A DNA stretch of 64,000 nucleotides. It comes from Eledone cirrhosa. Taxonomy: Eukaryota. The notes beneath the pieces were generated by a model. That model saw only the letters and a program-made list of their open reading frames with translations, searched no databases and was not told where the DNA came from. The position numbers and the translations under genes were made by a program. The stretch is taken from contig OZ024742.1 in assembly GCA_964016885.1 (NCBI GenBank), positions 262,260,001 through 262,324,000 of the forward strand, given 5' to 3'. Below are positions 1 through 62,905 of the stretch, one piece after another. The stretch's first letter is position 1; every line of letters begins with the position of its first letter.

Positions 1-734
1 TTAGCTGCTGTTATTGGATTTTTTCAGCACATCACCTCCTTAAATGAGGGTTGTTGCAGGCTTAATTTTTAATATAGGCCATGAATTTTGGGCCTAGGTA
101 CAGTTGATTTTACTAATCCATAGTAGTTGACAGTCACTTTTGTTTATTGACTTCACCATTTCAGAAAAATGAAAGGCAATATTAACTTCTGCTGGGTGAT
201 GAATGTTTTGTCCCATTCTCTACTGATACTGCATATCCACCAGACTTATAATAATAATAATACATACATAAATTTTTACTGTATAGATTTACAAGATAGG
301 AAGTTATTGTTTTTGTTTTCTTCAGTTCATAATTTTCATTATGTATAGATTATATCATGTCTCTGATACAGTGTTGACTAAGATCTTCATTGAAAAGTCT
401 CTGGTGCAAATGCTTTTTTTTTTCTGTTGTGGTTTTAATTTTAATTTTATTTGGCTGGGGAATTGTATTTTGTGTGGTGTGTTTTGGTTGATTTAAGCTT
501 ATTGTATTTTGTTGTTGGGCAGGGTTGTTTAATGAAAAATTATATACACTCTAATGGACTAAAATCCCCATTGAAAGGTCTCTCCTATAAAGAGTTTTTC
601 CAATGATAGGATTAAGTATTTAGTACACTGTAGGTTATATAGTACTAATTTATCTGTTAGCCACAACTCAACAGAAACCAGATATTGAAGGTGATTGTGG
701 CCTGTTTCATGTCTGTCTCAATCTCAGAGGCTCA

Positions 735-953
735 TCAGGCCAGTGCTTATCCCAGTTTCTATGGTATTAAGTGACTGAAAGTACAGGATGCCAGTCCATT
801 GCAGGGTTAAACCTTTAGCTATTACTGGTACTCATTTTCAGCTGAGTACACAAGAAGTGTTGTACTCAAGAACACAATGCACAATGCAATCCAAGAATCG
901 AACCCACAACATTATGATCATAAGTCCAACACCCTTACCACTAGGCCATGCTG
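735..953 (-). mobile_element. tRNA-derived SINE (Meta-domain-like), decayed
   Basis: The reverse strand begins GCATGGCCTAGTGGTAAG (A box) and contains GGTTCGATTC (B box). The central GGTACTCATTTTCAGCTGAGT resembles the SINE bodies at 23383 and 43659. Confidence 0.55.
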
Positions 954-1073
954 GGTATTTTGTGTGCTATGTTTTTTGGTTAGTTTTGGTTTGTTGTATT
1001 TAGTTGTTGGGTATGATTGTGTAAAGAAAAAATATATTTTATTTACTTTTGTTGTTGTTCTCACTTTTCACAG

Positions 1074-1206
1074 AATCCTTTCCCAGTTTGCATTCAACCT
1101 TTCACTTGACTGGGAGCTACCCAAGAAGAAAGTACCCCCAGATGGCCTTCGAGAAGGGGTCCGAGATATGCTTATCAAGCATCACTTATTCAGCTGGGAT
1201 CTCTGA
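1074..1206 (+). CDS. SGSM3: Last coding exon of small G protein signalling modulator 3 (RUN/TBC/SH3 protein); upstream exons lie outside the window
   Basis: Polypyrimidine tract plus CAG acceptor at 1071-1073. The exon reads (R)[43 protein letters not shown], matching from memory the SGSM3 C-terminus (FAFSLSQDWELP...[18 protein letters not shown]). Confidence 0.85.
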
Positions 1207-2671
1207 TATTCAATTAACTAATTAATAAGCATGTATCATTTAGACAAGGACATTCCTGTGTGTAGCTGTAGCACATGTGCACACACACACACATTCTCTT
1301 ATTGTCATACACATAGAGCTGACACCAGGCTAGCTCTACACTGTGTGTCCCCTTCCAGTGATGCACTCCATTCGCCGAAATAAAATAAATCCAACTTAAA
1401 GTTTGGCAAGCTGATGAACCTAGTTTTTGACACTTTTTGCTCTGACTACACAAAGAAAATTACTAAGCCAACATTTTCCACTACACAGTCCACACTCACC
1501 CATGTCAAATGTTTCAAGTCATAACACCATATGATCCTCTATATCACTTTGAATATTTCCACAATGCTGCTACTTAGCAAAGATATTTAGTGATTTATTT
1601 ATTGATTGCAGGAAATTATTTATATAATTATACAAATTTGTATAAAACTGTGATCCATCAAAGTTCACTAATGCTCCTTTCTGAGGTCTGTGTCCTAGGT
1701 GGCTACTTAGTTGGCTTTAATGATATTGCCATCCTTACATATACTTAAATGAACACATTTATACATACATGTATACTCACACACAATAATAATAGGGTTT
1801 GGTATGTTCTAGCAAAATAATTGTCCCTTTATTTATTTGTTAGCTGGTCTTGGAGTTAAGAATAAAAAACTGGAAATAAATGAACTTCAGTTTTTAAAGT
1901 TAATCATATACATGTATGACTGGTTGAGACCATTGACACCTCTCACCAGTGATGTCCTCATATTTTGACAGTACAAACCTTAACTGTAGTTAGGCAACCT
2001 GGAAAAAGATTAAATGAAATCTGTTTGCCAGTATGGAAAGGGGACATAAAATGATAATGATGATGCCAGGTATGTGGTAGCACAGATACATTCCAAAGAC
2101 CCAAATCTTTGATGGCACCACAGCGATAATAATAGCGATTCATATGTATACATACATGCTTGTATGTATATGATCATACATGTTCTTAAGCACATATCAT
2201 ACATATATACCCAATGGTGTCATTATTATTTCCATTATATGTCTGCATAAATGATAAAAATGCTCTTTTGTAAATAGAAGAAGAAAAAAAAATGAAATGA
2301 ATTTTCAAGAAGAAAACTACAAGAATCAGAAGGAGAAATGAAATCCAGATTTGGTATGCTTAAAAAAATAAAGAAAAAATAATCATGAATTAAAAGTTGT
2401 TATTGAAACTAAGAAATTCTTTTTCTTTTTATTTTTTAATGCTTAATGTCCTGTACCACACGAAACCAATAAGCAATACATTATTTAAATGTAGAAAACA
2501 TCACTGTGACTGCATCACATTAAAAATTGAAATCTGGTCTCTAATACTGCAAATTTCCACACTGATCTATCCATGAGTTTATATACTTTAAACATTATAT
2601 ATATGTACCGTCTAAACCCATGCTAGTGTGGAAGATAGACGTTAAACGACAATGATGATGATGATGATGAT

Positions 2672-2835
2672 AGTTATACTTTGAAAAGGTCATGCTGTTA
2701 ATAAAAACACAGCTCCAGTTGAGTTTCACTTCAATTTATTATTATAATTTTCTGTCAGTTTAATAACAAGATTGTGGTTTACTTGTTGATTGTCAAAACT
2801 CTTTTGTCACACATTCTGTGATCTCTTCAGGAACA
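2672..2835 (-). mobile_element. Decayed Penelope-like 3' end (pseudo-LTR) with a degenerate hammerhead motif
   Basis: GTTATACTTTGAAAAGGTCATGCTGTTAATAAAAACAC resembles 13630-13700 and the 3' end of the intact PLE. The reverse strand at ~2792-2835 reads CTGAAGA-GATCACA-GAATG-TGTGAC-AAAA. Confidence 0.55.
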
Positions 2836-2849
2836 GTAAGCAGCAAATG

Positions 2850-3848
2850 ACCACATGAAAGCAGGAAACAAGCGCTACCAAATTCTTGGAGGGCTCTGTA
2901 GAAATAGTAGTGCTACTTAGGTGACCAAATTAGCAATGGTGATGGGTGTTCTGAAAGTACAGTAGCCAGAGTAAGAACGGGATGGAGGATGTTCAGGGAG
3001 GTACTACCACTGTTGGCTACAAAAGGCTTCTCCCTCAGAATGAAAGGCAGACTGTATGATGCGAGCATACAAACAACTATGTTGCATCGTAGTGAGACCT
3101 GGGCACTGTGTGCAGATGACTTCCGTATTGGAAAGAAATGAAACTTGCATGCTCCGATGGATGTGTCATAGTAATATATCAGAACGGCAAAGCATAGGCA
3201 TAAGAGGAATCAAATATTGTGTGCAGGAGAGGAGATTGTGTTGGTGTGGACATGTGATGCATATGAAGAATGGCAGCTGTAAAAAAAGGTACAGAGCACT
3301 CAAAGTCGATGGAAGCCTTGGGGTGAGGTGATAAAAGCTGACCTTGCCCAATTGCACCTCTCAAAGGTGATGACACATGACCAGGATCTCTGGCAATACG
3401 CAGTAATACAGAAGACCCAATTTCCCACAAGCACAAGCTGAAGCATATATACAGTATGTCCCAATCCAACCCATCCTCCCATACACCCCCAGGAGGACAG
3501 GCCAAATTAAATGCATCCAGTGAAGGCCCCAGCCCACGCTGTAAAGTGCCTGTGATGGTGACATGGAAAAAAGTGCCCAGCCCACTCGGAAAAATGGTTG
3601 TGTAGGTGTTACGGCAAAAAGCACCCAGCCCACACCATAAAGTGGTTGCGTAGGCATCACAACAAAAAAGCACTCAGTACTCACTGTAAATTGAGGTTGA
3701 CGTTAGGAAGGGCATCCAGCTGCAGAAACTAGGCCAGAACCAGACCGGTATGAGCAAGACATGGTCTCCTGACCTACAATTGCTCACAAGACAACCCGTC
3801 TAACCCATGCTAGCGTGGAAAATAGACATAAGATGGAGGTGATGAGGA
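2850..3848 (+). mobile_element. 5'-truncated RTE-clade LINE (family B) with 3' UTR repeats
   Basis: Frameshifted RT C-terminal fragments (ERNETCMLRWMC, VQERRLCWCGHV). The 3' UTR has ~50-bp subrepeats and ends CCCGTCTAACCCATGCTAGCGTGGAA, followed by a degenerate (ATG)n. Confidence 0.75.
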
Positions 3849-4201
3849 TATGTGTATAAACACACAAAGATGTATATATAGACCATGTGTGTGTGTATAT
3901 ATATATACATACACACCATACATATATATAAATATGTGTGTGTATGTTATGTTGGTTCCACAAAACTTCCACTGTAAAGTGGTTGCGTAGGTGTCATGAC
4001 AAAAAGCACCCAACACACATTATAAATGTGGTTGGTGCTAGGAAGAGCATCCAACAGTAGAAAACCAGTCAGAAACAGTCCTATATGAGAGGGATATGGT
4101 CACCCGACCCAACTTGACTCTAAATGGGGCGAACCCATCTAACCCATGCTATTGTGGAAGATAGACATTAAACGATGATGATGATGATGGATATATATAA
4201 C

Positions 4202-13565: not shown

Positions 13566-13770
13566 CACTTCGTTTTTGAATTTGTATTGCAAGATTTTTT
13601 ATCTGAAAACGTGTATTGAAACAGATATTGTTATACTTTGGGAGGGTCATGTTGCCAATAAAAACACACGCACCTGTTGGTTTTCACTTCAATTTATTAT
13701 ATAAGTTGAAGTGAAAACCAACAGCTGCATGTGTTTTTATTGGCGGCATGACCCTCCCAAAGTATAACTA
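13566..13770 (-). mobile_element. Minimal fold-back of a Penelope-like 3' end related to the intact element
   Basis: 68-bp arms 13630-13697 and 13701-13768. The reverse strand reads TGACCCTCCCAAAGTATAACAATATCTGTTTCAATACACG versus TGACCCTCCCCAAATATAACAATATCTGTTTCGACACACG at 21927-21966. Flanked by (TA)n. Confidence 0.75.
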
Positions 13771-13787
13771 TATATATATATATATAT

Positions 13788-14970
13788 ATATATTGGTAAA
13801 CGGAATAGAAAATGCTGACAAATTGTTCACAGTTGAAAAATGGTTTAATTAGGAATAAAAGAGTATTAGTGATTGTATGGGTTAGTATTCGGTTGTGGTT
13901 TTAAGTTTTTAAGTTTTTACCGGTTGCGCATTTCTAAATGCTTTTCAAAAATAATTTTGAGATAGAGTGTCCGTGCTGTTTGCTCTGATCTGATTAGTTT
14001 TGGGAATTCTACCTGTTTTTATGTTAAAAAAATTGGCTCCAGCGTTATTTTTGTGTTGCAAAAATGCTTGTGGTCAAAACAATTTTGATTGGTCGGTAGA
14101 GGTCATGTGGATAAAAAATTGGTTTTGCGCCAAGATTGAGAAATGACTCTTTCACAACAAATATGTGTGTGTGTGTGTAGTAAGGTATTCGATGCAGACC
14201 AAAAACAGCCTCCGCCAACGCATGACTGTCCATAGATCCCAAATTAAAATACGGGAATACAGGAAAATACCATTGATACCTGTGCCGCCCAAAATCATCC
14301 CAACTTCAGAATCTTTCCCCTCTACAAATTTAAAGATAATGCCACCCACACCCAGCGCATCAGCAAGGAATCTTACTTCATTAACAAATACGGACCCCGT
14401 CTAAACACTTCTCCCTAAGACAAACCCACAACATACACACGTCAACATACATACCTACATCAGCACACATCTCTACCCACATATAAACACAATGACACAC
14501 GTAAACACACATGCTCTATGGTGCAATACAAAAAAATATATGTGCATATATATGTATATATATATATATATATATGTAGTGAATATATGTGTGTGTGTAT
14601 GTGTGTATATATATATAGTGAATATCATTTCACACCTTTTATTGTTAAGATTTTTGATGTTCTATTAAGAGAACCGATTTTACTGAAAAAATCGAATAAT
14701 GTACACCATTTTACCAGGGGGAAAAAAATACTGCCCCCCCCCCCCCCCCCACATATATCCACAAACACACGCGTACATCAACATACAAAGAGACTTATAC
14801 ACACACACACACACACACACACGCACTTCTCCGTATAAGACAAAAGCTGAAAAATATCCTTTGACCTTCGAATGACTCTGCTGTATACACACACACACAC
14901 ACACACACTTATCTTAATAGCCATTTGACACACATCGCTGCTGGCTATTGTCGCAGCATCGGATACCTTA

Positions 14971-15054
<84 letters not shown>

Positions 15055-15448
15055 TTGTTGTGAAAGAGTCATTTCTCAATCTTGGCGCAAAACCAATTTT
15101 TTATCCACATGACCTCTACCGACCAATCAAAATTGTTTTGACCACAAGCATTTTTGCAACACAAAAATAACGCTGGAGCCAATTTTTTTAACATAAAAAC
15201 AGGTAGAATTCCCAAAACTAATCAGATCAGAGCAAACAGCACGGACACTCTATCTCAAAATTATTTTTGAAAAGCATTTAGAAATGCGCAACCGGTAAAA
15301 ACTTAAAACCACAACCGAATACTAACCCATACAATCACTAATACTCTTTTATTCCTAATTAAACCATTTTTCAACTGAACAATTTGTCAGCATTTTCTAT
15401 TCCGTTTACCAATATATAACTTGTGTGTTACACCTCTATTCTTTTAAC
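13788..15448 (+). mobile_element. 5'-truncated Penelope-like element (second family) with inverted 3' duplication
   Basis: Arms 13788-14195 and 14956-15418 are near-identical reverse complements apart from (CA)n length. The centre (14196-14418) encodes a frameshifted GIY-YIG C-terminus (QTKNSLRQRMTVHRSQI ... FRIFPLYKF...RISKESYFINKYGPRLN*). The right arm has a ~30-bp extra tail. (TA)n on both sides. Confidence 0.75.
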
Positions 15449-15671
15449 TATATATATATATATATATTGTTATATTTGGGGAGGGTCATATTTGCGTAAT
15501 ATTGCCAGAATTAATAACAGAACACACTCACTGTTTGGTTGGTTTTCGCTTCTCGCTGTCTTTTATATATATATATCTGCGATCTAACTTACTCGGTCCT
15601 CAATGTTGCCATTGACTGACCGGCGGTCAAAAATAAAATAATACAGATACAATATAGACAAACACATATAT

Positions 15672-15728
15672 ATATAGTTTACATAAATCTTTCGTTGCAC
15701 ATCTGCAACATCGTCAGTGGTGTTATAT
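15672..15728 (-). ncRNA. Candidate minimal type I hammerhead ribozyme (mirror copy)
   Basis: Exact reverse complement of 21687-21743. Confidence 0.55.
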
Positions 15729-15981
15729 TCATTGTTCCTCCTGTTGTGTTGTATGTCTACGCCATTTTTTTTTTTTTTTTGTTCAGTCCGTCTATATATT
15801 TATTTATTTATTTGCTTGTTTGTTTATCTTATTTTATTTTGTCTTCTTTGCGCATGCGTTTGCGTGTGTGATGTGTGACTAGTGTGTATAGTGTTGTGTC
15901 TGCTGGGTGACTAGTGTGTGTTTATGTGCTTGTGTATGTATTTATTTATCTTATTTTATTTAATTTAATTTACTTATTTAT

Positions 15982-18342
15982 TTATACTTCTCTTAGGTCA
16001 GTGTTGTTTGTTTGGGTGTTGTTGTTGTTCCACTCATTCTTTCTGTTTAGCTTTGGTCTTCTAATTTCTATTTCACTGGCCTCTCTGATTTGCCTATCTG
16101 CTGGGTCATTCCTATGTTTAGATATTATTCTAATTTCTATGTTGTCTATGTTACCGTCATGATGTTGTCTAGCATGTTCGTATAGTACTGACCCGTTTTT
16201 TCGTCCTTTTAGTTCCCCCCAGTGTTGGTCTATCCTTTCACCTATGCTACGAGCTGTCTCACCTATGTATGTTGTTGTCGTGTTTCTGCAAGTACCCTCT
16301 GTACATCTTATGCTATAGACTACGTTTCTAGTTTTACAGTTTATCCGGGGGTTCACCTTACATATGATACATTTCCTATTGGTACAGTGGGTTTTCTTAA
16401 AAGGGTAGGTTTTGCTGATCAGGGATTTTATGGTGGTTCCTGGCTTTTCTACCACCTTTATTTTTAAGTGGGTCTTTCTCAGGGCCTTTCTACACTGGTT
16501 AGCTAATTTCCCTCCAGGGGTGGCGTCCACAAACATGACACTCTGATATCTCTGGTTGTCGTACCATGATGTGGCCTTCCCTATCTTATGTCTAGCCCTA
16601 TCTAAGCTATTCCATGATTTGCTCCTGTATAGTGGGCAAATTCCTTTCATGTCCAGTTCTATGAGGGTCTTATACTTTTCCATGGCTCCTTCGTATACTC
16701 TGACTCTGTCTCTTTGGTTGTAGCCAGAGAACTGCATGCGGTTGATGAAGTGTTGGATGTGTCCTTCCATTTCTGTTGGGTCGCACATGCTGGACACATT
16801 CTTCATCACTCGTACCAAATCTGCGATCAGAATATTAAACTTAGCACTACTGGACATTGCTGAGTTTTTGAGTATCAGGTATTTGGAGGCCATGGGTTTA
16901 GCATAGTGTGAGTGGAGAATTTGGGCTCTCTCGTCTATAGTGTTAATCCAGAGTTCTGTGTCTAATACAGGTAGTCTATTGTTAGGGTGTTTGGAAGGGA
17001 AGTCTATAGTTACAGTTATACTCTGGTGTATGGAATTAGCTATCTGCTGGATGCTTTCCATCGTGCTACGTTCTAAATCAAACTTGTTAGTGCTCTCTAG
17101 TGGGGGTGTTCTTATAACTATATTGATATCGTCTACATAACGAGAGTACATGATGAGGTCTATGGAGCTTTCATTAAGGAGATCTTTAAGGCTCCTTTCC
17201 CACCATACCATGAAAAGGTTGGCAACATCGCCAGCTATGCTGACGCCGATGGCTGCTCCCTCATTTTGGGTGTAGATTTTCTCATTGAACTTAAATATGT
17301 GGCCCTTTAGGGTAGTTTTGATACTAGCCCCTATTGCATGTGCGACCATTTTTCTTACCTGATCAGTGTTTTGGGGGGTCCGTATAGCTTTGGTCCACCC
17401 AATCCACCTTCCTATGGGAGTCTTTTTAGCCATTGAGGTTATGGTGGGGGGTCTACCTCTTATAGGTCTACTAGGGCAGAAACATCTAAGGTCATGGCTG
17501 TCTAGGTAGTCAGTGTCGTAGGTAAGTCTAAGTAGGAGGCCCAGTTCGTCTGTGTCGACGTCGCAGAACTCCACCTCACTCTCAATGATCATCTCCACAC
17601 ATCTTTTCACAGCAAAATCAATGTTAATGGATGGGTACAGTGACACCACATCCATGCTGCCTATTATGCAGTTGGATAGGCTCCTGTTTTTGTTGCACTC
17701 ACTGATTCTGCTGAGGAGGTCCTCTGTACTTTCACATACATCTGGGGACATCTTGATTATGGGGCGTATAACCATTGAGAGGAAGTAGGAGATCCTGTAG
17801 TTGCTAGCTATATTAGCTCCGCATACAGGTCTTGTTGGTGGTCCTGTTGTCGGGTCGTCGACTGTCTTGTGGTCTTTGCGGAGCCCATACAAGGGTGGTA
17901 TGCCATTGTTAGACGCCTGGAAGTTGTTGGCAGTGCGTCTGCTTGGCTTTAGGATGTCAGTCCACATCATCATGTGAGCGTTGAGGATTTTTTCTCTCCC
18001 ATCGTGTGTTAGTTGCGCAACTTCGCTCGTGTTGGTGATGTGGGGTTGCATTGCCTCGATGTAGTTCGGCATGCTATCTATTGACATCCTACCAGACTTA
18101 TCTGTGGGTAGACACACTACCTCACCATCCCTTGTGCGCTGCTTGAGGCTAACCAAGCCTTCTACAGGTTTTATCCCAAGTTGTTGGGCCTCTGGTCTGC
18201 TCTGTCTCATAGTGTACCTGTCTACTACTTGTCTAATCTTATTTCTAGCTATGGTGAACTGTGCCTCCGTCTCGTCATCTATTTGTTGTGGTATGCAAAC
18301 TCTTTTATTAAAGGGTAACCTCGTAGGATAGATATTACCCAT
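15982..18342 (-). CDS. PLE RT-GIY-YIG ORF, inverted and more 5'-truncated copy (786 aa from an internal Met)
   Basis: Translation is identical to the C-terminal 786 aa of 18495-21446, with no stops. Confidence 0.85.
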   Translation of the reverse strand: MGNIYPTRLPFNKRVCIPQQIDDETEAQFTIARNKIRQVVDRYTMRQSRPEAQQLGIKPVEGLVSLKQRTRDGEVVCLPTDKSGRMSIDSMPNYIEAMQPHITNTSEVAQLTHDGREKILNAHMMMWTDILKPSRRTANNFQASNNGIPPLYGLRKDHKTVDDPTTGPPTRPVCGANIASNYRISYFLSMVIRPIIKMSPDVCESTEDLLSRISECNKNRSLSNCIIGSMDVVSLYPSINIDFAVKRCVEMIIESEVEFCDVDTDELGLLLRLTYDTDYLDSHDLRCFCPSRPIRGRPPTITSMAKKTPIGRWIGWTKAIRTPQNTDQVRKMVAHAIGASIKTTLKGHIFKFNEKIYTQNEGAAIGVSIAGDVANLFMVWWERSLKDLLNESSIDLIMYSRYVDDINIVIRTPPLESTNKFDLERSTMESIQQIANSIHQSITVTIDFPSKHPNNRLPVLDTELWINTIDERAQILHSHYAKPMASKYLILKNSAMSSSAKFNILIADLVRVMKNVSSMCDPTEMEGHIQHFINRMQFSGYNQRDRVRVYEGAMEKYKTLIELDMKGICPLYRSKSWNSLDRARHKIGKATSWYDNQRYQSVMFVDATPGGKLANQCRKALRKTHLKIKVVEKPGTTIKSLISKTYPFKKTHCTNRKCIICKVNPRINCKTRNVVYSIRCTEGTCRNTTTTYIGETARSIGERIDQHWGELKGRKNGSVLYEHARQHHDGNIDNIEIRIISKHRNDPADRQIREASEIEIRRPKLNRKNEWNNNNTQTNNTDLREV

Positions 18343-18494
18343 CTTATATGTTTTGTCAGCTGGGTTGAAAAATAGTTTCTCTAAGGGGTTGTCGTTATTT
18401 CTATCGTCATAGTTGTGTGTGTTGCTATTATTATTATCATGGTGGTTATTGTTGTTTCTATCATTAGCTTTAATATTACAAAAAGATTAACCCT

Positions 18495-21446
18495 ATGGAA
18501 TGCAAAACTGAACTGGAAAAGTGTTTCACAAAAATACGTTGGAATGCAAAGGTAAACAACAACAACAATAATAACGGTAGTAGTAATATAAACAATAACT
18601 CTGGGTATAGAAATAACAGCCATAACCATAACAATGGCAGGAAAGTGAGAAATAGTGATAATGGTAATAATACTAGCGATAGACAGAACAACAACAACCA
18701 CAATAATAATAATAATAGAAACGTTAACCACAGACACAGCAACAGTGACCACAGTAGTAATAACGGTAACAATACGAACAACAACAACAACAATAACCAC
18801 AGTGGTAATAATGGAAATAGTACATGTAGCAACATCAACAAAAACAAGAAACATAATAATAGTAACAACCACAATGGTAGAAATAGCAGTAACAACAACA
18901 ACAATAACGGTGAAGTAAACAACAATACATCTAGCAATCATAACAATAATAATATTAAAGCTAATGATAGAAACAACAATAACCACCATGATAATAATAA
19001 TAGCAACACACACAACTATGACGATAGAAATAACGACAACCCCTTAGAGAAACTATTTTTCAACCCAGCTGACAAAACATATAAGATGGGTAATATCTAT
19101 CCTACGAGGTTACCCTTTAATAAAAGAGTTTGCATACCACAACAAATAGATGACGAGACGGAGGCACAGTTCACCATAGCTAGAAATAAGATTAGACAAG
19201 TAGTAGACAGGTACACTATGAGACAGAGCAGACCAGAGGCCCAACAACTTGGGATAAAACCTGTAGAAGGCTTGGTTAGCCTCAAGCAGCGCACAAGGGA
19301 TGGTGAGGTAGTGTGTCTACCCACAGATAAGTCTGGTAGGATGTCAATAGATAGCATGCCGAACTACATCGAGGCAATGCAACCCCACATCACCAACACG
19401 AGCGAAGTTGCACAACTAACACACGATGGGAGAGAAAAAATCCTCAACGCTCACATGATGATGTGGACTGACATCCTAAAGCCAAGCAGACGCACTGCCA
19501 ACAACTTCCAGGCGTCTAACAATGGCATACCACCCTTGTATGGGCTCCGCAAAGACCACAAGACAGTCGACGACCCGACAACAGGACCACCAACAAGACC
19601 TGTATGCGGAGCTAATATAGCTAGCAACTACAGGATCTCCTACTTCCTCTCAATGGTTATACGCCCCATAATCAAGATGTCCCCAGATGTATGTGAAAGT
19701 ACAGAGGACCTCCTCAGCAGAATCAGTGAGTGCAACAAAAACAGGAGCCTATCCAACTGCATAATAGGCAGCATGGATGTGGTGTCACTGTACCCATCCA
19801 TTAACATTGATTTTGCTGTGAAAAGATGTGTGGAGATGATCATTGAGAGTGAGGTGGAGTTCTGCGACGTCGACACAGACGAACTGGGCCTCCTACTTAG
19901 ACTTACCTACGACACTGACTACCTAGACAGCCATGACCTTAGATGTTTCTGCCCTAGTAGACCTATAAGAGGTAGACCCCCCACCATAACCTCAATGGCT
20001 AAAAAGACTCCCATAGGAAGGTGGATTGGGTGGACCAAAGCTATACGGACCCCCCAAAACACTGATCAGGTAAGAAAAATGGTCGCACATGCAATAGGGG
20101 CTAGTATCAAAACTACCCTAAAGGGCCACATATTTAAGTTCAATGAGAAAATCTACACCCAAAATGAGGGAGCAGCCATCGGCGTCAGCATAGCTGGCGA
20201 TGTTGCCAACCTTTTCATGGTATGGTGGGAAAGGAGCCTTAAAGATCTCCTTAATGAAAGCTCCATAGACCTCATCATGTACTCTCGTTATGTAGACGAT
20301 ATCAATATAGTTATAAGAACACCCCCACTAGAGAGCACTAACAAGTTTGATTTAGAACGTAGCACGATGGAAAGCATCCAGCAGATAGCTAATTCCATAC
20401 ACCAGAGTATAACTGTAACTATAGACTTCCCTTCCAAACACCCTAACAATAGACTACCTGTATTAGACACAGAACTCTGGATTAACACTATAGACGAGAG
20501 AGCCCAAATTCTCCACTCACACTATGCTAAACCCATGGCCTCCAAATACCTGATACTCAAAAACTCAGCAATGTCCAGTAGTGCTAAGTTTAATATTCTG
20601 ATCGCAGATTTGGTACGAGTGATGAAGAATGTGTCCAGCATGTGCGACCCAACAGAAATGGAAGGACACATCCAACACTTCATCAACCGCATGCAGTTCT
20701 CTGGCTACAACCAAAGAGACAGAGTCAGAGTATACGAAGGAGCCATGGAAAAGTATAAGACCCTCATAGAACTGGACATGAAAGGAATTTGCCCACTATA
20801 CAGGAGCAAATCATGGAATAGCTTAGATAGGGCTAGACATAAGATAGGGAAGGCCACATCATGGTACGACAACCAGAGATATCAGAGTGTCATGTTTGTG
20901 GACGCCACCCCTGGAGGGAAATTAGCTAACCAGTGTAGAAAGGCCCTGAGAAAGACCCACTTAAAAATAAAGGTGGTAGAAAAGCCAGGAACCACCATAA
21001 AATCCCTGATCAGCAAAACCTACCCTTTTAAGAAAACCCACTGTACCAATAGGAAATGTATCATATGTAAGGTGAACCCCCGGATAAACTGTAAAACTAG
21101 AAACGTAGTCTATAGCATAAGATGTACAGAGGGTACTTGCAGAAACACGACAACAACATACATAGGTGAGACAGCTCGTAGCATAGGTGAAAGGATAGAC
21201 CAACACTGGGGGGAACTAAAAGGACGAAAAAACGGGTCAGTACTATACGAACATGCTAGACAACATCATGACGGTAACATAGACAACATAGAAATTAGAA
21301 TAATATCTAAACATAGGAATGACCCAGCAGATAGGCAAATCAGAGAGGCCAGTGAAATAGAAATTAGAAGACCAAAGCTAAACAGAAAGAATGAGTGGAA
21401 CAACAACAACACCCAAACAAACAACACTGACCTAAGAGAAGTATAA
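18495..21446 (+). CDS. PLE polyprotein: Asn-rich insert, reverse transcriptase, Cys linker, GIY-YIG endonuclease (983 aa; 5'-truncated)
   Basis: Motifs: PTDKSG, LYGLRKDHK, RPVCG, GSMDVVSLYPSI (motif A), YTQNEGAAIG (B'), RYVDD (C), LPVLD, CxxxxCxxC linker, NVVYSIRC...YIGETARSIGERIDQH...H...REA..I....PKLN. The frame is open back to the inversion junction (YKKINPM...). Confidence 0.92.
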   Translation: MECKTELEKCFTKIRWNAKVNNNNNNNGSSNINNNSGYRNNSHNHNNGRKVRNSDNGNNTSDRQNNNNHNNNNNRNVNHRHSNSDHSSNNGNNTNNNNNNNHSGNNGNSTCSNINKNKKHNNSNNHNGRNSSNNNNNNGEVNNNTSSNHNNNNIKANDRNNNNHHDNNNSNTHNYDDRNNDNPLEKLFFNPADKTYKMGNIYPTRLPFNKRVCIPQQIDDETEAQFTIARNKIRQVVDRYTMRQSRPEAQQLGIKPVEGLVSLKQRTRDGEVVCLPTDKSGRMSIDSMPNYIEAMQPHITNTSEVAQLTHDGREKILNAHMMMWTDILKPSRRTANNFQASNNGIPPLYGLRKDHKTVDDPTTGPPTRPVCGANIASNYRISYFLSMVIRPIIKMSPDVCESTEDLLSRISECNKNRSLSNCIIGSMDVVSLYPSINIDFAVKRCVEMIIESEVEFCDVDTDELGLLLRLTYDTDYLDSHDLRCFCPSRPIRGRPPTITSMAKKTPIGRWIGWTKAIRTPQNTDQVRKMVAHAIGASIKTTLKGHIFKFNEKIYTQNEGAAIGVSIAGDVANLFMVWWERSLKDLLNESSIDLIMYSRYVDDINIVIRTPPLESTNKFDLERSTMESIQQIANSIHQSITVTIDFPSKHPNNRLPVLDTELWINTIDERAQILHSHYAKPMASKYLILKNSAMSSSAKFNILIADLVRVMKNVSSMCDPTEMEGHIQHFINRMQFSGYNQRDRVRVYEGAMEKYKTLIELDMKGICPLYRSKSWNSLDRARHKIGKATSWYDNQRYQSVMFVDATPGGKLANQCRKALRKTHLKIKVVEKPGTTIKSLISKTYPFKKTHCTNRKCIICKVNPRINCKTRNVVYSIRCTEGTCRNTTTTYIGETARSIGERIDQHWGELKGRKNGSVLYEHARQHHDGNIDNIEIRIISKHRNDPADRQIREASEIEIRRPKLNRKNEWNNNNTQTNNTDLREV

Positions 21447-21686
21447 ATAAATAAGTAAATTAAATTAAATAAAATAAGATAAATAAATACATACATAAAC
21501 ACACACTAGTCACCCAGCAGACACAACACTATACACACTAGTCACACATCACACACGCAAACGCATGCGCAAAGAAGACAAAATAAAATAAGATAAACAA
21601 ACAAGCAAATAAATAAATAAATATATAGACGAACTGAACAAAAAAAAAAATGGCGTAGACATACAACACAACAGGAGGAACAATGA

Positions 21687-21743
21687 ATATAACACCACTG
21701 ACGATGTTGCAGATGTGCAACGAAAGATTTATGTAAACTATAT
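21687..21743 (+). ncRNA. Candidate minimal type I hammerhead ribozyme in the PLE 3' repeat
   Basis: CUGACGA-U-[GUUGCA gaug UGCAAC]-GAA-AGAUUU-A: perfect 6-bp stem II and a self-complementary (with G-U) stem III. Stem I is CA/UG, then an internal loop, then AUAUA/UAUAU. Confidence 0.6.
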
Positions 21744-21989
21744 ATATATGTGTTTGTCTATATTGTATCTGTATTATTTTATTTTTGACCGCCGGTCAGT
21801 CAATGGCAACATTGAGGACCGAGTAAGTTAGATCGCAGATATATATATATAAAAGACAGCGAGAAGCGAAAACCAACCAAACAGTGAGTGTGTTCTGTTA
21901 TTAATTCTGGCAATATTACGCAAATATGACCCTCCCCAAATATAACAATATCTGTTTCGACACACGATTTCATATAAAAAACCTCGCAA

Positions 21990-22027
<38 letters not shown>

Positions 22028-23382
22028 AATTTATCGAAGACTACTCCTCTGGATTTCAGTGGGAAAACATTTATTTCCTCGCTTTTTTTTTCGTCTATCA
22101 ACTAATCTAACCTCTAAAATGCTCACAATTGACTTTTTTCCTGGAAAACAGATAACCCTCTTGGAGTTTCCTCTAGGTAGTTTTTTTTTTTTTCACTTAT
22201 TTTGTATGTTATCAACGAATCATCATCATCTTCGTTTAATGTCCATCTTCCACGCTAGCATGGGTTAGACGGGAGTTGCCCCACTTGAGGCAATGTTGGT
22301 CGGGTGACCGTCTCTCACTCATATAGGACTACCTGGCAGGTTTTCTACGGCTGGATGCCCTTCCTAACCAACCACATTTACAGTGTGGAACTGGGAACTT
22401 TTTACCGTGTTACCTACACGGCCATATTACAGCGTGGACTGTGAGTTTTTTTGTCATGACACCTACACGATCTCGATCTCATTATCTCATTTATTTGGAC
22501 TGGATGTTGTGGTACCAACTTTACAGAGAGACGGTGGTGTTGGTGGGAGTGAGAGGATACGGTAGGGGTAGTGGATTGGGGTGTATATTTGGTTAATAGG
22601 TGCCTACTGACTGTAGGTTTCGCTTTGTACATAGGCAAGGTGGGTCTTCTGTATTACTGCGTAGCGCCAAAGGTCTCAGTCCAGTGACATTGTCTTAGAG
22701 AGGTGCAAGTGTCTAAGGTCGGAATTTATCAGATCGTCCCAGGTTTTTCTGGGTCTACCTAGTCCGTAGCTACCATAAATTTTGATTGCCCTGCACTTTT
22801 TTATACAGCTGTCGTCTTTCATGCGCATCACGTGCCCATGACCTCCAAACAAGTTGGAAATGACTATATTTGTAGAAAAATAAAAGTGAAAGAGGGCGAA
22901 AAGGCCATTGAATTTTCGTAGTTCACACCTCGCATTTGTTGGGAAATAATACCCCCCCCCCCCTTTTTTTTTTTTATTATATATATGCTATCAACTTTTC
23001 TGACCTCTTAAATGCTCACAATTGATTTTTTTTTTTTCATACGGAAACCCTAATCCTAATTCAGGAAAAAATGTCGATTGTGGCATCTAAGAGGTCTAGA
23101 AAAAATCAAGGAAAAATAATCATTTGTAAATAGTACTATGATGAAAGAACTGGTGTACTCTTTAGAGTTCAGGAATGTATGAAAGTGAAGTAGGACCCCC
23201 AACTCGTCTGTTATGTACTGACTTGCCCTATGACAAACTGTTCAACCTTTGGTAGTAGGAAAAGTAGATGATGATATACACACACACACATGCAATATGA
23301 CTGGATCTCCTTGTTATTAAAACACCTGAGAAAACTGAGGTGTAACCTTGTAGGCTAAACCTACATTGTGAGCTGCAGAAAT

Positions 23383-27217: not shown

Positions 27218-29780
27218 CAGGGTGCATCATTTTTTTAGGACTTGCATGAATTTAGAAAAAGACGTATAGCACATAAGAGAAATACTATATGTGATAGAAA
27301 TGGGTACAAATATTATTTACAATACATTTTGAGAAGGATATACAACCGCTAAGAGAGAAGCTAGACGTCGGGTGTACTTAGCATGCAGGGAGGCTGAGAG
27401 TAGGAGGTTTGCCAATGTTCTGCGACGGGAAGATCAGAGGCGTGCAGTGTTCCACATTGCAAGGCAGTGTGTCAATGCAAATCAGGATGTTGTTGAAGAT
27501 CAATGTGTCTGGAATGATGCCGGTGTACTTAGTGTCATGAATGATCAGAAAAAGGAGGCCTGGAAATGTCATTATGAGAGACTGATGAATGTGGAGAACG
27601 AATGGGAGAGAGAGAAATTACCCTCAGTAGATCCGACAGAGGGACCAGCTATTGAGATTGACGAATATAGGGTCCAAGAGGCGATTAAGGAAATGAAAAA
27701 TGGTAAGGCTGCTGGACCGTCGGGGATAGTTGCTGAGATGCTGCAGGCATCAGGGGACGTAGGCACTAAACTAGTTGCCCGCATCATCAATCAGGCTATA
27801 TATGGTGGTGTCATACCCAAAGACTGGTGCAGCAGTATTCTCATAAATTGCTACAAAGGTAAAAGGGATGCTCTGGAGAGGAGCAATTATAGGGGTATAA
27901 AACTGATGGATCAGGTTATGAAAGTGGCAGAAAAGATATTAGCACAACTAATTAGAGAAAGGGTCAAACTAGATGAGATGCAGTTTGGTTTTGTGCCTGG
28001 GAAGAGTACAACAGATGCCCTCTTCTTGGTGAGACAATTACAAAAGAGGTTCTGAGAGAAAAATAAGCCATTATACTTAGCCTTTGTTGACCTAGAGAAG
28101 GCCTTTGATAGGGTACCCCAATCTGTCATCTGGTGGTCCCTAAGGAAACTAGGTGTTGAGGAATGGCTTGTGAGGACAGTGCAAACTTTGTACAGAGGTA
28201 CTGTCAGTAAAGTCAGGGTAGGAATGGAGTTTAGTGAGGAATTCCAGATACAAGTAGGAGTACATCAAGATTCAGTCCTCAGCCCACTCTTGTTCATTAT
28301 AGTCCTCCAAGCCATAACAGAAGAGGAGTTTAAGACTGGCTGTCCATGGGAACTTCTCTATGCTGACGATCTGGTTCTTATAACAGAATCAGTAGAGGAG
28401 CTAGAGAATAAATTCTGGCTATGGAAACAGCAGTTGGAAGCAAGAGGACTGAGAGTGAACCTAGCTAAGACAAAAGTGTTGATGAGTAGAAAAGAGGACA
28501 AAACTCTGATTCCGTCAGGGAAATGGCATGCAGAAAAGGAACTGGCATAAATTCTATAAAATGCGCACAATGCAGATCCTGGGTACACAAGAGATGTAGT
28601 GGGATAGCAGGCAAACTAACAGGTAGGGAGAAATACGTATGCAGTAGATGTACAGGGAAATTAGACAGTAGAAGTCGCATTGATAGACACATTTTCAAAT
28701 GCAGGCGGGTGCTAGACCCAGCATGAATGTGTTGAGAGAGAAAATGTGTCTGAGAGGGATAGAATGTAGTGTACGGGAGAGGAGACTGAGGTGGTATGGA
28801 CATGTGATGCGCATGGAGGATGACTGATGGGTGAAAAAGTGCCAGGAAATGCCAGTTGAAGGAAGACGTGGTAGAGGTAGACCACGAAAAACATGGACGG
28901 AAGTGGTGAGAACAGACCTCAGATTGCTGAAGCTCACGGCGGAGATGACGAAGGACCGTGCGAAGTGGAGAGATGCTGTGCTGAATAAGACCCGTCCCAC
29001 CCTTGCAAGCAGGGTAAAGCGGACGTAAAATGATGATGATAATATCTATTCAAAGTGTTGGCATACCCAAATCAAATGACCTCTATCAATACTGGACATT
29101 GTGCTGGTAATAGCAGACTTGAAAGATTCTATAGTGTTGTGAGAGTGATGATTGACCTCTCTTTTCAACTACGCCCCAGTCCAGAGGATTGAGGTCTGAT
29201 GACCTAGGAGGTCATGTGTTTGGAAGAACGTGATCATGGAGATTGTCATGCATCCATGCTTGTGCCATTTAGGCCTTTCGAGATAGTGTGGAGTTTTGTT
29301 GGAAGATGAACAGTCTTCTGTTATTTATCCTGTCTGTCCAGGGCTTCAGAACTGTCTCTAACGCCTCTTTGTAAGCAGCAGCATTGACTCTTAAGCCCCC
29401 TCTACCCCCCCAATGCCGAGGCATGACATCTACCTTGTTGCTGACAACACCCAGAACAATTACAGTTGCTGGAAATTTGGTGTGCATGACCGTTGGAACC
29501 TCATTTGGGTCTCTATATAACCATCTATCTTTCCTTCAGTTTACTTTTTGGTCCTGATCAAAGTTTTTCTCATAAGAAAAGAACCAAAGCATTCCAGCTT
29601 CTTGATGCTTTATCCTAGTTCATAAGCGCTTTGCACACACCAAACGATTTTCTTTTGTCACATCCAACATAAACTGGCCTTTTAACACCACATACGACTT
29701 GTATCACATGTCTTCATGGACTCTTCTCATGGTGCATTCTGAAACTTTAAGGTCCTTTGTGATGGCTCTGATTAAATTTC
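27218..29780 (-). mobile_element. Decayed DD37D-type mariner interrupted by an RTE LINE
   Basis: TA-CAGGGTG end at 27216-27224. Transposase remnants on the - strand at 29040-29770 (TKFPATVIVLGVVS, LRVNAAAY, FQQNS, WPPRSSDLNPLD). Confidence 0.6.
27349..29040 (+). mobile_element. 5'-truncated RTE-clade LINE (family A), with a nonsense mutation, a frameshift and a ~0.3-kb internal deletion
   Basis: YRGIKL, QFGFVPGKSTTDA, VGVHQDSVLSPLLF and LLYADDL motifs, with an (ATG)n tail. Closely similar to 58743-60750. Confidence 0.9.
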
Positions 29781-45070: not shown

Positions 45071-46644
45071 GATTTGGGCTTAAATTCAATATTTTTAATA
45101 CTTCTCCGAGTGGATTATTGGTTTATTAATATATCATCCTTTCATTGAGATGCTTACGTATTAGAAACAATTGCCTCTCAGACTGGCTGGGGGCTGCATC
45201 TCACATTCCTACACTTTACAGAGTGCACTAGTGGGGAGTTATCATTGATACAAATTTGAATTCTCTCAATCATTTTGCTATGGTTTCTACGGTTGGGTAC
45301 ACTATCACCAACCATCTTATGTGGTTTACTGGGTGCATTTTTTTTGTAGCACCAGCACTATGAAGGTTGTTGGTCATATATATTATTTGTGATGCATGTG
45401 GATCTCCCTCCTCTTTCTTTGTTGATTTGCTCACTACTTTACTACGATCTATCTCCCCTGCTTTCATGTGACTCTTGTCTCGTTCTTTCGTCTTAGTACA
45501 ACCACACTGTTCAAATGGAGATATTACTACTAGCCTACTTTTTCCTCTCTGCACATTATCTACCCTGTGTTTGTTTTGTCTCCATAAGTCTGACCATCTA
45601 CATCACACATTTAATTATACACATATTTTGTCCTCAATGTATTTTTATATAGGTTCTTCTCCGTCTTGTAACATACTCCATGACAGTGTTTCTCTATATT
45701 GTTGGATACTGTGTACCAAATTTCATTCACAAGTCATAAGACTATAACAAGACATTTCCCCTGGCATCACACAGTGGGAGTGAAACTGAAACCACGTGGT
45801 TGTGAAGCGAACTCCTTAACCACTCAGTCATACCTGTACCAGTATATAATAATTAATTTTAAATATTTCTGCTTAAACTGTTTATGTTTAATCAGGAAGT
45901 GAAGGCTGAAAGGACGAGGTGTAGTAGTTAGTATTGGGCGTTGGACGAAACATGAGTCTAGTGCCTAAGTGGGGTGGCATGAGATAAGCAAACCCAGAGA
46001 TTATTGTAGTAGTGGTGGGGGAAAAGAGTCAGCTCGTCTGTGGACAAGGAATTGGATAGTGTTAGTGAATGACTTCATACAGATTAGCTTTTGTCTGGAT
46101 GAGATTTGTGTCTAACAGTAGCAGCGTCACACCGCCTCACTAGATATGCGAACAGTATGAGTTATCTGAATGGCATCATACCATCTAGAGAGGTTGAGAG
46201 TTAAACTTTCTTATTCGGAGCGAGAGCATAGTGTACGTATGTCCACGCAGCTTAGCTTCTCGCCATCTATCGATTGAATCTAGTAGAAGCATGAAAAACA
46301 ACGGGAGATAACTGGCATATTTAATGTAAACAAAGTGTCTGATAAAATATTCCTGTTATAGCCGCATAGTTACCATGTAAACAAGGGGAGGTAAGTTGGG
46401 GTGGTTGTAGTGGTAGCGAAGGTGGAGGAGTGGAATGTTGTAAAAAGTCTCACACGTTCATAAACAATCTGCGTGGCCGATAACAACAAAGCAAGAGAAC
46501 TTTCTGCTGTGTGTGAAAGGAAAAACTATCAGTCTTGTATCGTCATCGACCTTACTTGGTCGATTTAAAAAACTTTATTCTCTCACCACCACCACCACCA
46601 CCAACTCATGTTAAACTTTATTTGCCAACAATTTAGTTGGGAAA

Positions 46645-47667
46645 ATGACGAACATACAGCCAAACTTACGAACTTCCAAACATATCTTTTACATAGTTTT
46701 GTTAATTCTGACTATTTATTTTCTCGTCATGGACATTATTTTATATGTTACCCTACAGAGATCCGTACTCTGCGAAAAGAAAGATGGCCTTTATTCGCCT
46801 CTACGTCCTCTCACAGTCAAACTTATAATGACCGATCCGTTTGACCATTGGATTATAAGTCCAGTGATGGAAATTTTCGATGAACTCACTGGATTCAGTA
46901 GTGTTTTTTATTTCATTACACCAAACATGATAAGTATTTTCCACATGTGCCTAACTATATTGGCTGGTAAACTGGTCTGCTCGCCTTCCTTACACACCCG
47001 CAGAATCGCTGTATTGCTCTACCAAATGCATGATCTTTTAGATGCCCTCGACGGGGTGGTTTTCCGCGCTAGATCAGGTAAAGTTCACTTATTTCAGTCG
47101 CATCGTTCTTCCATCGGCTATGTTGTGGACGGCCTCTGTGATACGATCGGTGGTACAGCCCTCTGTATTGGACTGGCCGTTAATTTGTGTCGCAACCCTC
47201 CATCCAAAAGACAACAGAATACCCTACCCTGGACAAAAGCTGACCTGTTGCTGGACAGTCCAAACGGGCCTGTTACAGCGACAGCTGAGAAACAAAACGG
47301 ACATGTCAGCAAATTCACTGCCTTTTTTCGCTGTTTTTCCTTTGGTATGCAGCTCCTTCTAGCTGCTGCCATGTGGGACAAAAGTGTTTCTAGACTTTCT
47401 GCTATTCTGCAAGTGCCCATTAAAGACCCTAGTTCTGCTGCTCTACAAGTACAACTTTTGCACTCAGCCAGTACATCCATTATATTTTGGCTGTGGCGTT
47501 TCTCCTCCGCCATGGCTCTGCTTCAGATGGTCCTCTTCTCTATTTTTATTGATAAAGTCTGGGAGTTTCTCACATTTATCATGTATGTCGGATGGCCTCT
47601 ATTAATTGCAGTCATTTTTGTTAGTGAACTACATATAAGGGCTCTACGAGAAAAAATGCACATGTAA
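46645..47667 (+). CDS. Cpes: Ceramide phosphoethanolamine synthase-like CDP-alcohol phosphotransferase (340 aa, uninterrupted ORF)
   Basis: N-terminal TM helix, VKLIMTDPFDHWI, ITPNMIS, and the CDP-alcohol motif DLLDALDGVVFRAR...GYVVDGLCD. Several C-terminal TM segments ending in D+.WEFL, an architecture recalled from insect Cpes. Confidence 0.8.
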   Translation: MTNIQPNLRTSKHIFYIVLLILTIYFLVMDIILYVTLQRSVLCEKKDGLYSPLRPLTVKLIMTDPFDHWIISPVMEIFDELTGFSSVFYFITPNMISIFHMCLTILAGKLVCSPSLHTRRIAVLLYQMHDLLDALDGVVFRARSGKVHLFQSHRSSIGYVVDGLCDTIGGTALCIGLAVNLCRNPPSKRQQNTLPWTKADLLLDSPNGPVTATAEKQNGHVSKFTAFFRCFSFGMQLLLAAAMWDKSVSRLSAILQVPIKDPSSAALQVQLLHSASTSIIFWLWRFSSAMALLQMVLFSIFIDKVWEFLTFIMYVGWPLLIAVIFVSELHIRALREKMHM

Positions 47668-56600: not shown

Positions 56601-57738
56601 CCATTTAGGTCGCCAGCAATAATTATATAGTCACTGTCGGTTATTTGGGAGGTAGTGAGCATCAGTGTCTCATAGAATCTGTCTTTTATAGTGCCGGGCA
56701 GTCCGGATTGGGGTGCGTACGCAGATATTACTGTCACAGTAGTTCTATTGAGGACAAGTCTTATTTTAATTATTCTGTCGTTCACTCTCTTTACGTCTAT
56801 TATCTTATCTGCCCACTTTTCTGCTACCATGATTCCTACTCCACCCAGCCCATTGTCATTTCCCACCCAGAAAAGCTTATAACATCGTTGTTTACCCACG
56901 ATGAATCTAGCAGACCCACCCCTCCATCTGGTCTCTTGAATACAACAAACATCGACCTTCTTACGTTCAAGCATTTCTACAACCTCGTTAGAGCGACCCT
57001 TTAAGGTGCCTACATTCATGGTACCAACTCTGAAGTTTGGGATTGCGTTTGGAGGTTGGGAGCGGTGGGGCACAGGGGGGGATGGGGGAGATGGGGCTAT
57101 GTTAGCCATCCGCGGCCGAAACAAAGAGGAGGAGTCCTTGCATTCTCGTCCATGAGGTGAATTTGTCTTCATCTTTGGCATTGTCACTGAGTGTCCAGAT
57201 TTTTTCGTTTTAACTCTCCAGAATTCCGTAGTCCATCCATCATATCGAAAGGCAACCAGGTAAGCGATAGCACAGGCCGCTGACTTATGATTGGCCCACG
57301 TAATAATGGTGGTGTGTGGGGGCGGGTGGGAGGGATATTGGGTAGTTAGAGAGAAGGTTAAGGTTTAAATAAGATCCCCGTATTTTGGGCATAATTTAAC
57401 AAGCATAAAACAATAATACAAGATTTCTTTTGAAAAATACGCTAGAATTATCGAATAGAAAAGCAAAGATTGTATTTTGGGAGAAATGATACAGAATGAA
57501 GAATGGACTAGGGAATTAAAATGGTGAGAAGAGTGAAGAAATATTTGTACGTTACATTACACCATGATAGCCTGTCTAGGGTAGGCGATTTTTGAGGTTT
57601 CGTACTTGCAGGATTTATTTTATATTTGGAGAGAGAGGAAGGGATTGGTGGCGAACCAGCATGATATAGAGGGGGGGGGGGTGAAGATAGGAGGGAGCAG
57701 AGGTTAAGAGTTTAAATAAAGTCCTCATATTTGGGGCA
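53656..57738 (-). mobile_element. Near full-length RTE-clade LINE (family B), frameshifted
   Basis: AP endonuclease (GTMNVGTL, CIQETRW, ISAYAPQ, IAGDLNGH; 56435-57187) and RT (YRGIKL, LAFVDLEKAFD, GVHQGSVLSP, YADDL; 54472-56349), then a 3' UTR with subrepeats and a (CAT)n tail at 53656. The 5' boundary is uncertain. Confidence 0.88.
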
Positions 57739-58542: not shown

Positions 58543-58742
58543 NNNNNNNNNNNNNNNNNNNNNNNNNNNNNNNNNNNNNNNNNNNNNNNNNNNNNNNNNN
58601 NNNNNNNNNNNNNNNNNNNNNNNNNNNNNNNNNNNNNNNNNNNNNNNNNNNNNNNNNNNNNNNNNNNNNNNNNNNNNNNNNNNNNNNNNNNNNNNNNNNN
58701 NNNNNNNNNNNNNNNNNNNNNNNNNNNNNNNNNNNNNNNNNN
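58543..58742. other. Assembly gap (200 N)
   Basis: Run of N. Confidence 0.99.

Positions 58743-62905
<4,163 letters not shown>

Follow-up and report, generated by a model that had tools for sequence, protein, structure and literature searches.

We analyzed a 64,000-nucleotide (nt) stretch of the Eledone cirrhosa genome (contig OZ024742.1, positions 262,260,001 to 262,324,000; hereafter, the window) and identified in it two 5'-truncated copies of one Penelope-like element (PLE) joined head to head within a (TA)n microsatellite. The mutually alignable arms, of ~3.0 kb (left, 15464-18478; right, 18950-21951), have their 3' ends outward, and the outer ends of both adjoin (TA)n (15449-15467 on the left and 21993-22024 on the right). 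A tail of 41 nt (about 21952-21992/21994) is present on the right arm only. Alignment of the reverse complement of 15440-18520 with 18900-22030 revealed two substitutions (18016/19412 and 15788/21632), an 8-bp indel (15928-15935) and a homopolymer difference of five additional A/T in the left arm (15776-15780), with no further differences.

Each arm carries a stop-free open reading frame (ORF), of 834 amino acids (aa) on the left (15982-18486, minus strand) and of 990 aa on the right (18474-21446, plus strand). The natural full unit is represented by a tandem copy (L031; the prefix L denotes loci fetched for comparison), with a unit of 4,126 bp and a 1212-aa ORF that begins within the terminal repeat. 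Because the ORF begins there, the "tail" is ORF-start sequence. Relative to the 1212-aa ORF, the left frame lacks the first 381 aa and the right frame the first 221 aa; without the promoter-bearing 5' pseudo-long terminal repeat (pLTR) and the ORF start, neither arm is likely to be autonomous. An earlier note on this DNA had described a recent PLE insertion into (TA)n with two uninterrupted but truncated frames, outward 3' ends, a tail on one arm and exactly this divergence between the arms, and our analysis agrees on each of these points. The features of the locus are as follows.

15449-15467, no strand: left remnant of the (TA)n target; its final ATAT is common to the tailless end of the element
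15464-18478, minus strand: left arm, 5'-truncated copy, unit positions 1059-4068 of the natural 4,126-bp unit, ending at the tailless site, +26 from the ORF ATG
15690-15717, minus strand: candidate minimal hammerhead-like core in the left pLTR (CUGACGA-stem II-GAAA), spotted by eye
15982-18478, minus strand: left open frame, 834 aa from stop to stop, without aa 1-381 of the 1212-aa ORF
18471-18478, no strand: TAATATTA palindrome, native sequence at the 5' breakpoint of the left arm, with no added hairpin
18474-21446, plus strand: right open frame, 990 aa, with an Asn-rich block, a DKSG motif (19320) and a reverse transcriptase (RT) core with SMDVVSLYP (19770) and YVDD (20289)
18474-21446, plus strand, C-terminal part of the same frame: short C-x4-CxxC linker (21042) and GIY-YIG endonuclease (EN) with CCHH (21105-21170)
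18477-18478, no strand: head-to-head joint of unit position 1059 in the left arm with 580 in the right arm, which share TA (2 nt of microhomology)
18477-21994, plus strand: right arm, 5'-truncated copy, unit positions 580-4111, ending at the first tailed site, +69
18479-18949, plus strand: "spacer", native Asn-codon-rich element sequence, in the right arm only
18980 (left arm, 18448), plus strand: allele common to both arms and, in its 38-nt context, confined to them within the assembly
21698-21725, plus strand: candidate minimal hammerhead-like core in the right pLTR; stem II folds
21926-21994, plus strand: ORF start of the next unit (ATG at 21926); the "tail", from 21952, is ORF-start sequence and occurs in the right arm only
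21993-22024, no strand: right target remnant, (TA)16

The palindrome TAATATTA is found twice (18471-18478 and 18950-18957) and is the element's own reading at unit position 1059. The 471 nt between the arms (18479-18949) are native element sequence, so that the right arm truly begins at 18477. Upstream of ACAAAAAG, the native sequence reads ...GCCATCT, and because GCCATCT natively precedes ACAAAAAG, the head-to-head joint shares only TA (2 nt); the longer microhomology between this native sequence and the joint for which the earlier note had suggested a search is absent.

The PLE identity rests on a single ORF in which the RT is followed by a C-terminal GIY-YIG domain with CCHH, the canonical layout of EN-containing (EN+) PLEs, and on the pLTR organization: tandem and partial-tandem pLTRs, the inverted copy and the optional tail over the ORF start are all present in the family. 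The CCHH residues appear in the translation as VVYSIRC-x3-TC...YIGET...H...H, with two Cys between GIY and YIG. The GIY-YIG domain was recognized by motifs and a published alignment, and the Pfam GIY-YIG profile gave E=0.099 in one of the four homologs scanned; the Pfam RVT_1 match (E=1.9e-4) is weaker than the curated cut-off. The top protein match was an Octopus vulgaris protein (68% identity), and a PDB search returned weak bacterial DRT matches only, which are uninformative on RT affinity. The C-terminal EN sets the element apart from Naiad and Chlamys, where the EN is N-terminal, and the linker at 21042 between RT and EN separates it from Penelope/Poseidon, which have no Zn-finger-like linker. 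In the supplementary alignment published by Craig et al. (2021, PMC8557442), the Nematis rows have a spacing like that of the CTNRKCIICKVNPRINCKTRNVVY linker (CX2-5CxxC, short and free of a Neptune-length insert ahead of GIY), unlike the Neptune or Penelope/Poseidon rows, and this visual motif comparison suggests a Nematis-like placement. The in-frame Asn block (49% asparagine; window 18540-19040) corresponds to aa 245-414 of the full ORF, ~170 aa.

The hammerhead-like cores (CUGACGA-stem II-GAAA) might represent a putative ribozyme: stem II of the right arm folds (z=-0.79), and Rfam yielded no hammerhead match at E<=1. The RNA fold of the start-site region is not unusual (z=-0.16). We also considered whether arms begin at the predicted hammerhead cleavage site and rejected this possibility, as no pile-up was observed (the 3850-3874 bin contains 2 of 75 breakpoints).

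Sister insertions across the assembly

The tail junction has 2,165 exact matches in the 3.0-Gb assembly and the tailless end 2,104, the latter pattern also picking up sister families. The best family matches are 99% identical, and an ORF of ~1,210 aa is present in 7 of 17 assessable full-unit starts (two more run off the stretch end). Thus, the family is large, young and, as the earlier note had supposed, probably still active. We fetched 120 stretches, namely, the 20 best matches, 86 stretches covering 84 consecutive tail clusters (C1, 0-158 Mb; the 85th consecutive cluster was already among the best-match stretches) and 14 of the 52 tailless-only clusters. Head-to-head loci make up 17/20, 60/84 and 4/14 of these sets, respectively, and with 17, 61 and 4 insertions plus the focal locus, 83 head-to-head insertions were tallied. 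Two of these, L041 and L042 (C1, 36.13 and 36.14 Mb), show the same head-to-head junction twice, 10 kb apart, as a local duplication or an assembly duplicate, and possibly are one event counted twice. Two loci, L074 and L093, hold complex insertions with several orientation switches.

Insertions of the consecutive set have a median size of 1.8 kb; both arms reach at least 2.5 kb in 4 of the 61 insertions, and one (L111) is larger than the focal locus. The focal locus, which the earlier note had taken for an unusual structure, therefore lies in the upper tail of an ordinary size distribution, in a family where this shape prevails at 60 of 84 consecutive loci.

The pairing of outer ends is nearly invariant. 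A tailless end is opposed to a tailed one in 81/83 insertions, two tailed ends in 2/83 and two tailless ends in 0/83. Because most loci had been chosen by tail, we examined an independent list of tailless ends: among the first 100 on C1, there was no opposed tailless-tailless pair, compared with 36 tailless-tailed pairs among the 85 tail clusters. The ends themselves fall at fixed positions relative to the ORF ATG, +26 in 77 of 166, +69/+71 in 28 and +84 in 53, such that the start sites for the two arms lie just 43-58 nt apart. The final 2-4 nt of each used end site match (TA)n, and the better match offered by a perfect TATA at +47/48 is never used as an end.

At their 5' ends, the arms vary independently. 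Among 80 insertions (L074 was left out), 33 have the longer reach on the tailless arm and another 33 on the tailed arm, and in 14 the two lie within 30 nt of each other. In 29/80, the tailless arm is the longer and comprises one unit, with no tail sequence (two lengths are approximate owing to BLAST splits). In three loci (L047, L147 and L149), the arms do not overlap at all; in the latter two, both selected as tailless, the tailed arm measures merely 16-23 nt.

Furthermore, the two arms of a locus share alleles. With variants at most 5 nt from indels or segment ends left out, discordance at polymorphic sites amounts to 7/638 (1.1%) within loci vs 8,631/40,560 (21.3%) between loci, and 33 of 75 doubleton alleles are confined to one locus, compared with 0.57 expected. 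The allele at 18448/18980 has exactly two matches in the assembly, the arms of the focal locus. In two arrays of 3-4 tandem units, L051+L052 (C1, ~14.39 Mb) and L115+L116 (~124.47 Mb), private alleles are common to the tandem units and the inverted arm throughout, which hints at repeated copying of one unit-length template, circular or re-entered.

Among 78 clean joints (10 of 88 rows were dropped as internal BLAST splits, complex rearrangements or incomplete arrays), 36 contain inserts and 42 are insert-free. Microhomology of at least 2 nt is present in 25 of the 42 insert-free joints, against a null of 14.6% (p=2.5e-11), and 23 of 28 long inserts hold an 8-mer from near a breakpoint. Joints across the family thus show either 1-4-nt microhomology or templated inserts, features that resemble polymerase-theta-type end joining. 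Palindromes are not enriched at breakpoints (7/158 vs 4.7 expected; for 6-mers, 18 vs 13.5), so that, for the palindrome on which the earlier note had placed the focal junction, the position stands and the proposed mechanistic role is not supported. Truncation at the 5' side is concentrated at an A10 run (unit positions 3749-3770; ~21632-21650 in the window), which takes 14 of the 75 breakpoints beyond 3600 and also hosts several symmetric hairpin-like junctions.

Proposed two-ended priming and its alternatives

We consider it likely that the focal locus is one recent insertion of an EN-containing PLE into (TA)n, generated by two-ended target-primed reverse transcription from one template, with the two complementary DNAs (cDNAs) joined head to head. 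In this scheme, the GIY-YIG domain would cut both strands within (TA)n, by analogy with a relative for which this was reported in vitro (Frangieh et al. 2024, PMC11167929). One 3'-OH would then prime at RNA position +26 and the other at +69/+71/+84, positions observed as insertion ends, and the same template haplotype would be copied into both cDNAs, as the shared alleles suggest. Each cDNA would halt independently, the observed stops at the focal locus being unit positions 1059 and 580, and the cDNA 3' ends would be united by microhomology-mediated end joining and fill-in, here via TA, presumably by a host pathway that leaves the signature seen at the joints. The large duplication would follow because the start sites lie only 43-58 nt apart, so that the cDNAs overlap. 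Priming of two cDNAs from both ends of one break was among the possibilities raised by the earlier note, and the end asymmetry, independent lengths and shared alleles all argue for it. For the relative studied in vitro, the available portion of the same paper describes a protein that cleaves and extends both strands, starts RT at two sites flanking the tail and is predicted to form a dimer (PMC11167929).

A more specific version, to which we would give about an even chance, is that the inverted insertion is the default output of the element: a dimeric RT-endonuclease on one RNA would cut both strands and use each of the two adjacent start sites once, one per DNA end, so that the same RNA is copied twice (sometimes in further rounds on a circular or re-entered template) before host end joining fuses the products. 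If true, this model would account, by one mechanism, for three features of PLEs: pLTR inversion, a tail on one side and tandem arrays. We found no published version of a two-ended model for PLEs in the literature searched; subscription papers and supplements may contain one.

Several observations weigh against two-ended priming or loosen its support. Among the consecutive loci, 24 of 84 fail the head-to-head criterion; one of these lies at an assembly gap, one array leaves its stretch and most look single-armed. Target-site duplications were not demonstrated, short flank matches (11/76) falling within the range of within-locus shifted controls (4-11); L072 is a single clean case, with 11 bp. 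An apparent excess over a between-locus null (16/74 vs 2.4) vanished against these controls and was discarded. One locus (L039) has two tailed arms of different haplotypes. The allele sharing could also stem from gene conversion between arms, and it fits one RNA copied twice and two RNAs of one donor absent from the assembly alike. No contig assembled from four sequencing runs spans the focal joint, and none of the contigs or reads compared crosses the border of element and flank; the contigs at the joint show the native upstream sequence and carry other family alleles. The in vitro relative is a Poseidon-clade element whose reported start sites are not homologous to the cut DNA, and the available portion of that paper does not address inverted insertions (PMC11167929). 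Finally, near-symmetric breakpoints occur in 13/78 joints vs 3.3 expected, several with small hairpins at the A10 run, and the focal locus is itself nested, its tailless arm lying within the span of the tailed arm at an offset of 479 nt.

The latter two points bear on cDNA fold-back, the mechanism that the earlier note had put in its title, whereby a cDNA primed at the tail site would extend to unit position 580, fold at position 1059 (TA, within the TAATATTA palindrome) and copy itself out to the tailless site. Taken alone, the focal locus is compatible with fold-back, being nested in the direction required and sharing a genome-private allele between its arms; nevertheless, we regard this explanation as unlikely for it, since a loop of 479 nt would be held by 2 nt of pairing. 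As a general mechanism, fold-back is refuted at the family level: a tailless arm copied from the tailed cDNA must be nested in it, and the 33:33 split and the 29 insertions with sequence in the tailless arm that the tailed arm lacks speak against this, as do the three non-overlapping loci. Fold-back also leaves the repeated stop at +26 unexplained and derives no support from palindrome frequencies at breakpoints. A minority of fold-back events in the family is plausible from the excess of symmetric junctions and from L079 and L134, whose junctions lie on true palindromes.

We regard as very unlikely both that two independent insertions entered one microsatellite and that inverted duplication or gene conversion homogenized the arms later. 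The (TA)n tracts are hit repeatedly, with three elements between 13.6 and 22 kb in the window, the two haplotypes at L039 would fit separate insertions, and palindrome arms in general are known to undergo gene conversion. However, (TA)n is absent between the arms and the joint is seamless, neither the strict pairing of one tail per insertion nor the low within-locus discordance would be expected, and gene conversion would not produce the end asymmetry.

Even less credible for this family is self-priming on an antisense transcript at built-in palindromes, proposed for head-to-head rotifer Penelope insertions with palindromic junctions (Arkhipova et al. 2013, PMC3846280): the same two junctions, L079 and L134, fit it, but palindromic overlaps of at least 6 nt occur in only 2 of 42 insert-free junctions, breakpoints are spread across the whole unit and both outer ends lie at the fixed sites expected of sense-RNA priming. 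An assembly or fold-back read artefact, to which the lack of a junction-spanning contig, the ~2,000 near-identical copies that make mis-assembly possible and the repeated L041/L042 junction could point, is similarly hard to credit, given arms that differ at four places, a family-typical end difference, unrelated flanks, a native spacer, a genome-private allele linking both arms to one locus and 82 other loci with the same layout and different breakpoints.

Other features of the window

In addition to the focal locus, the same (TA)n tract harbors a second head-to-head insertion (13792-15448), which belongs to another PLE family and has a tailless end and an end with a tail of ~38 nt. Fuller copies of this family end in a Neptune-like EN, with CxxC carrying a long insert and YIGQT (by eye). 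An opposed tailless/tailed pair was present in 7 of 30 fetched loci (3.2 kb examined in each) and like-ended outward pairs in 0/30, and the one-tail rule may thus reach beyond the focal family. An adjacent near-perfect hairpin element of ~150 bp (13625-13773), with ends resembling the focal tailless end and many similar hairpins genome-wide, is possibly a non-autonomous PLE derivative; Rfam microRNA matches at 13641-13757 were rejected as spurious, reflecting only the hairpin.

Farther along, an uninterrupted 350-aa frame (46615-47667, plus strand) contains a DALDG...AR...G...DG.CD stretch that resembles a CDP-alcohol phosphotransferase of the ceramide phosphoethanolamine synthase-like type, and has no Pfam match at E<=0.01. 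Fragments of non-LTR (long terminal repeat) retrotransposon RT/AP-endonuclease frames, which we take to be RTE- and CR1-like, lie at 27333-28550, 54472-57364, 58937-60723 and 61300-62286. The window also contains long (TA)n arrays and a 200-N assembly gap (58543-58742).

What makes the focal locus valuable beyond this window is the very young family to which it gives access, with roughly two thousand tailed ends. PLEs of this kind seed many multi-kilobase palindromes, likely sources of double-stranded RNA, instability and assembly error, and annotating the arms as separate events leads to double-counting.

Comparison with known systems

In L1 twin priming, priming occurs a second time from the other side of the cut, and the inverted 5' segment that results is joined through microhomology; the second site varies and lies upstream of the point where the first cDNA stops, hence little is duplicated. 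In the focal family, by contrast, both sites are fixed and adjacent, and the arms overlap over kilobases. The earlier note had set the locus apart from twin priming, a contrast that was overdrawn: the data fit a twin-priming-like event with start sites 43-58 nt apart and overlapping cDNAs.

The Poseidon element PAc of Anolis carolinensis has, like the focal element, two adjacent RT start sites in the ORF start that bracket the tail, an AT-rich target and an ORF that begins in the pLTR (PMC11167929). PAc belongs to a different clade; its hammerhead overlaps the start codon, whereas the focal candidate core lies ~230 nt upstream, and the focal start sites, unlike those of PAc, end in 2-4 nt matching (TA)n. 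In its available portion, the PAc study does not connect the two start sites with inverted insertions and their two ends; the present counts now tie such sites to both ends of a single genomic insertion.

The Penelope families of Adineta vaga resemble the focal family in their head-to-head inverted pLTRs, the optional tail overlapping the ORF start, the Asn-rich in-frame inserts and the microhomology at 5' junctions (PMC3846280). There, palindromic junctions and antisense self-priming were proposed, whereas in the focal family palindromes are not enriched.

The closest likeness in shape is to the EN+ PLEs surveyed by Craig et al. (PMC8557442), in which an inverted 5'-truncated copy lies next to the 5' end and a 30-40-bp tail is often found at one end only. 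These elements and the focal family have in common partial tandems, pLTRs, the one-ended tail, (TA)n targets and, at the C terminus, GIY-YIG with CCHH. Within the alignment of that study, the Nematis clade shares with the focal element a short C-x-CxxC linker ~7 aa from the next Cys, VVY-I-C...C...YIGET and the C-terminal EN; the ~170-aa block in the N-terminal part (49% Asn) distinguishes the focal element, and the likeness comes from visual motif comparison only. The shape of the focal locus is thus already published for PLEs. In the available portion of the survey, the shape is described, its mechanism is called undefined and the tail is ascribed to EN-mediated resolution, and how PLEs form tandem and inverted insertions is posed as an open question (PMC8557442). 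The present analysis adds counts from 83 insertions in the focal family, with strict pairing of one tail per insertion, independent arm lengths and shared alleles, and these counts separate the models.

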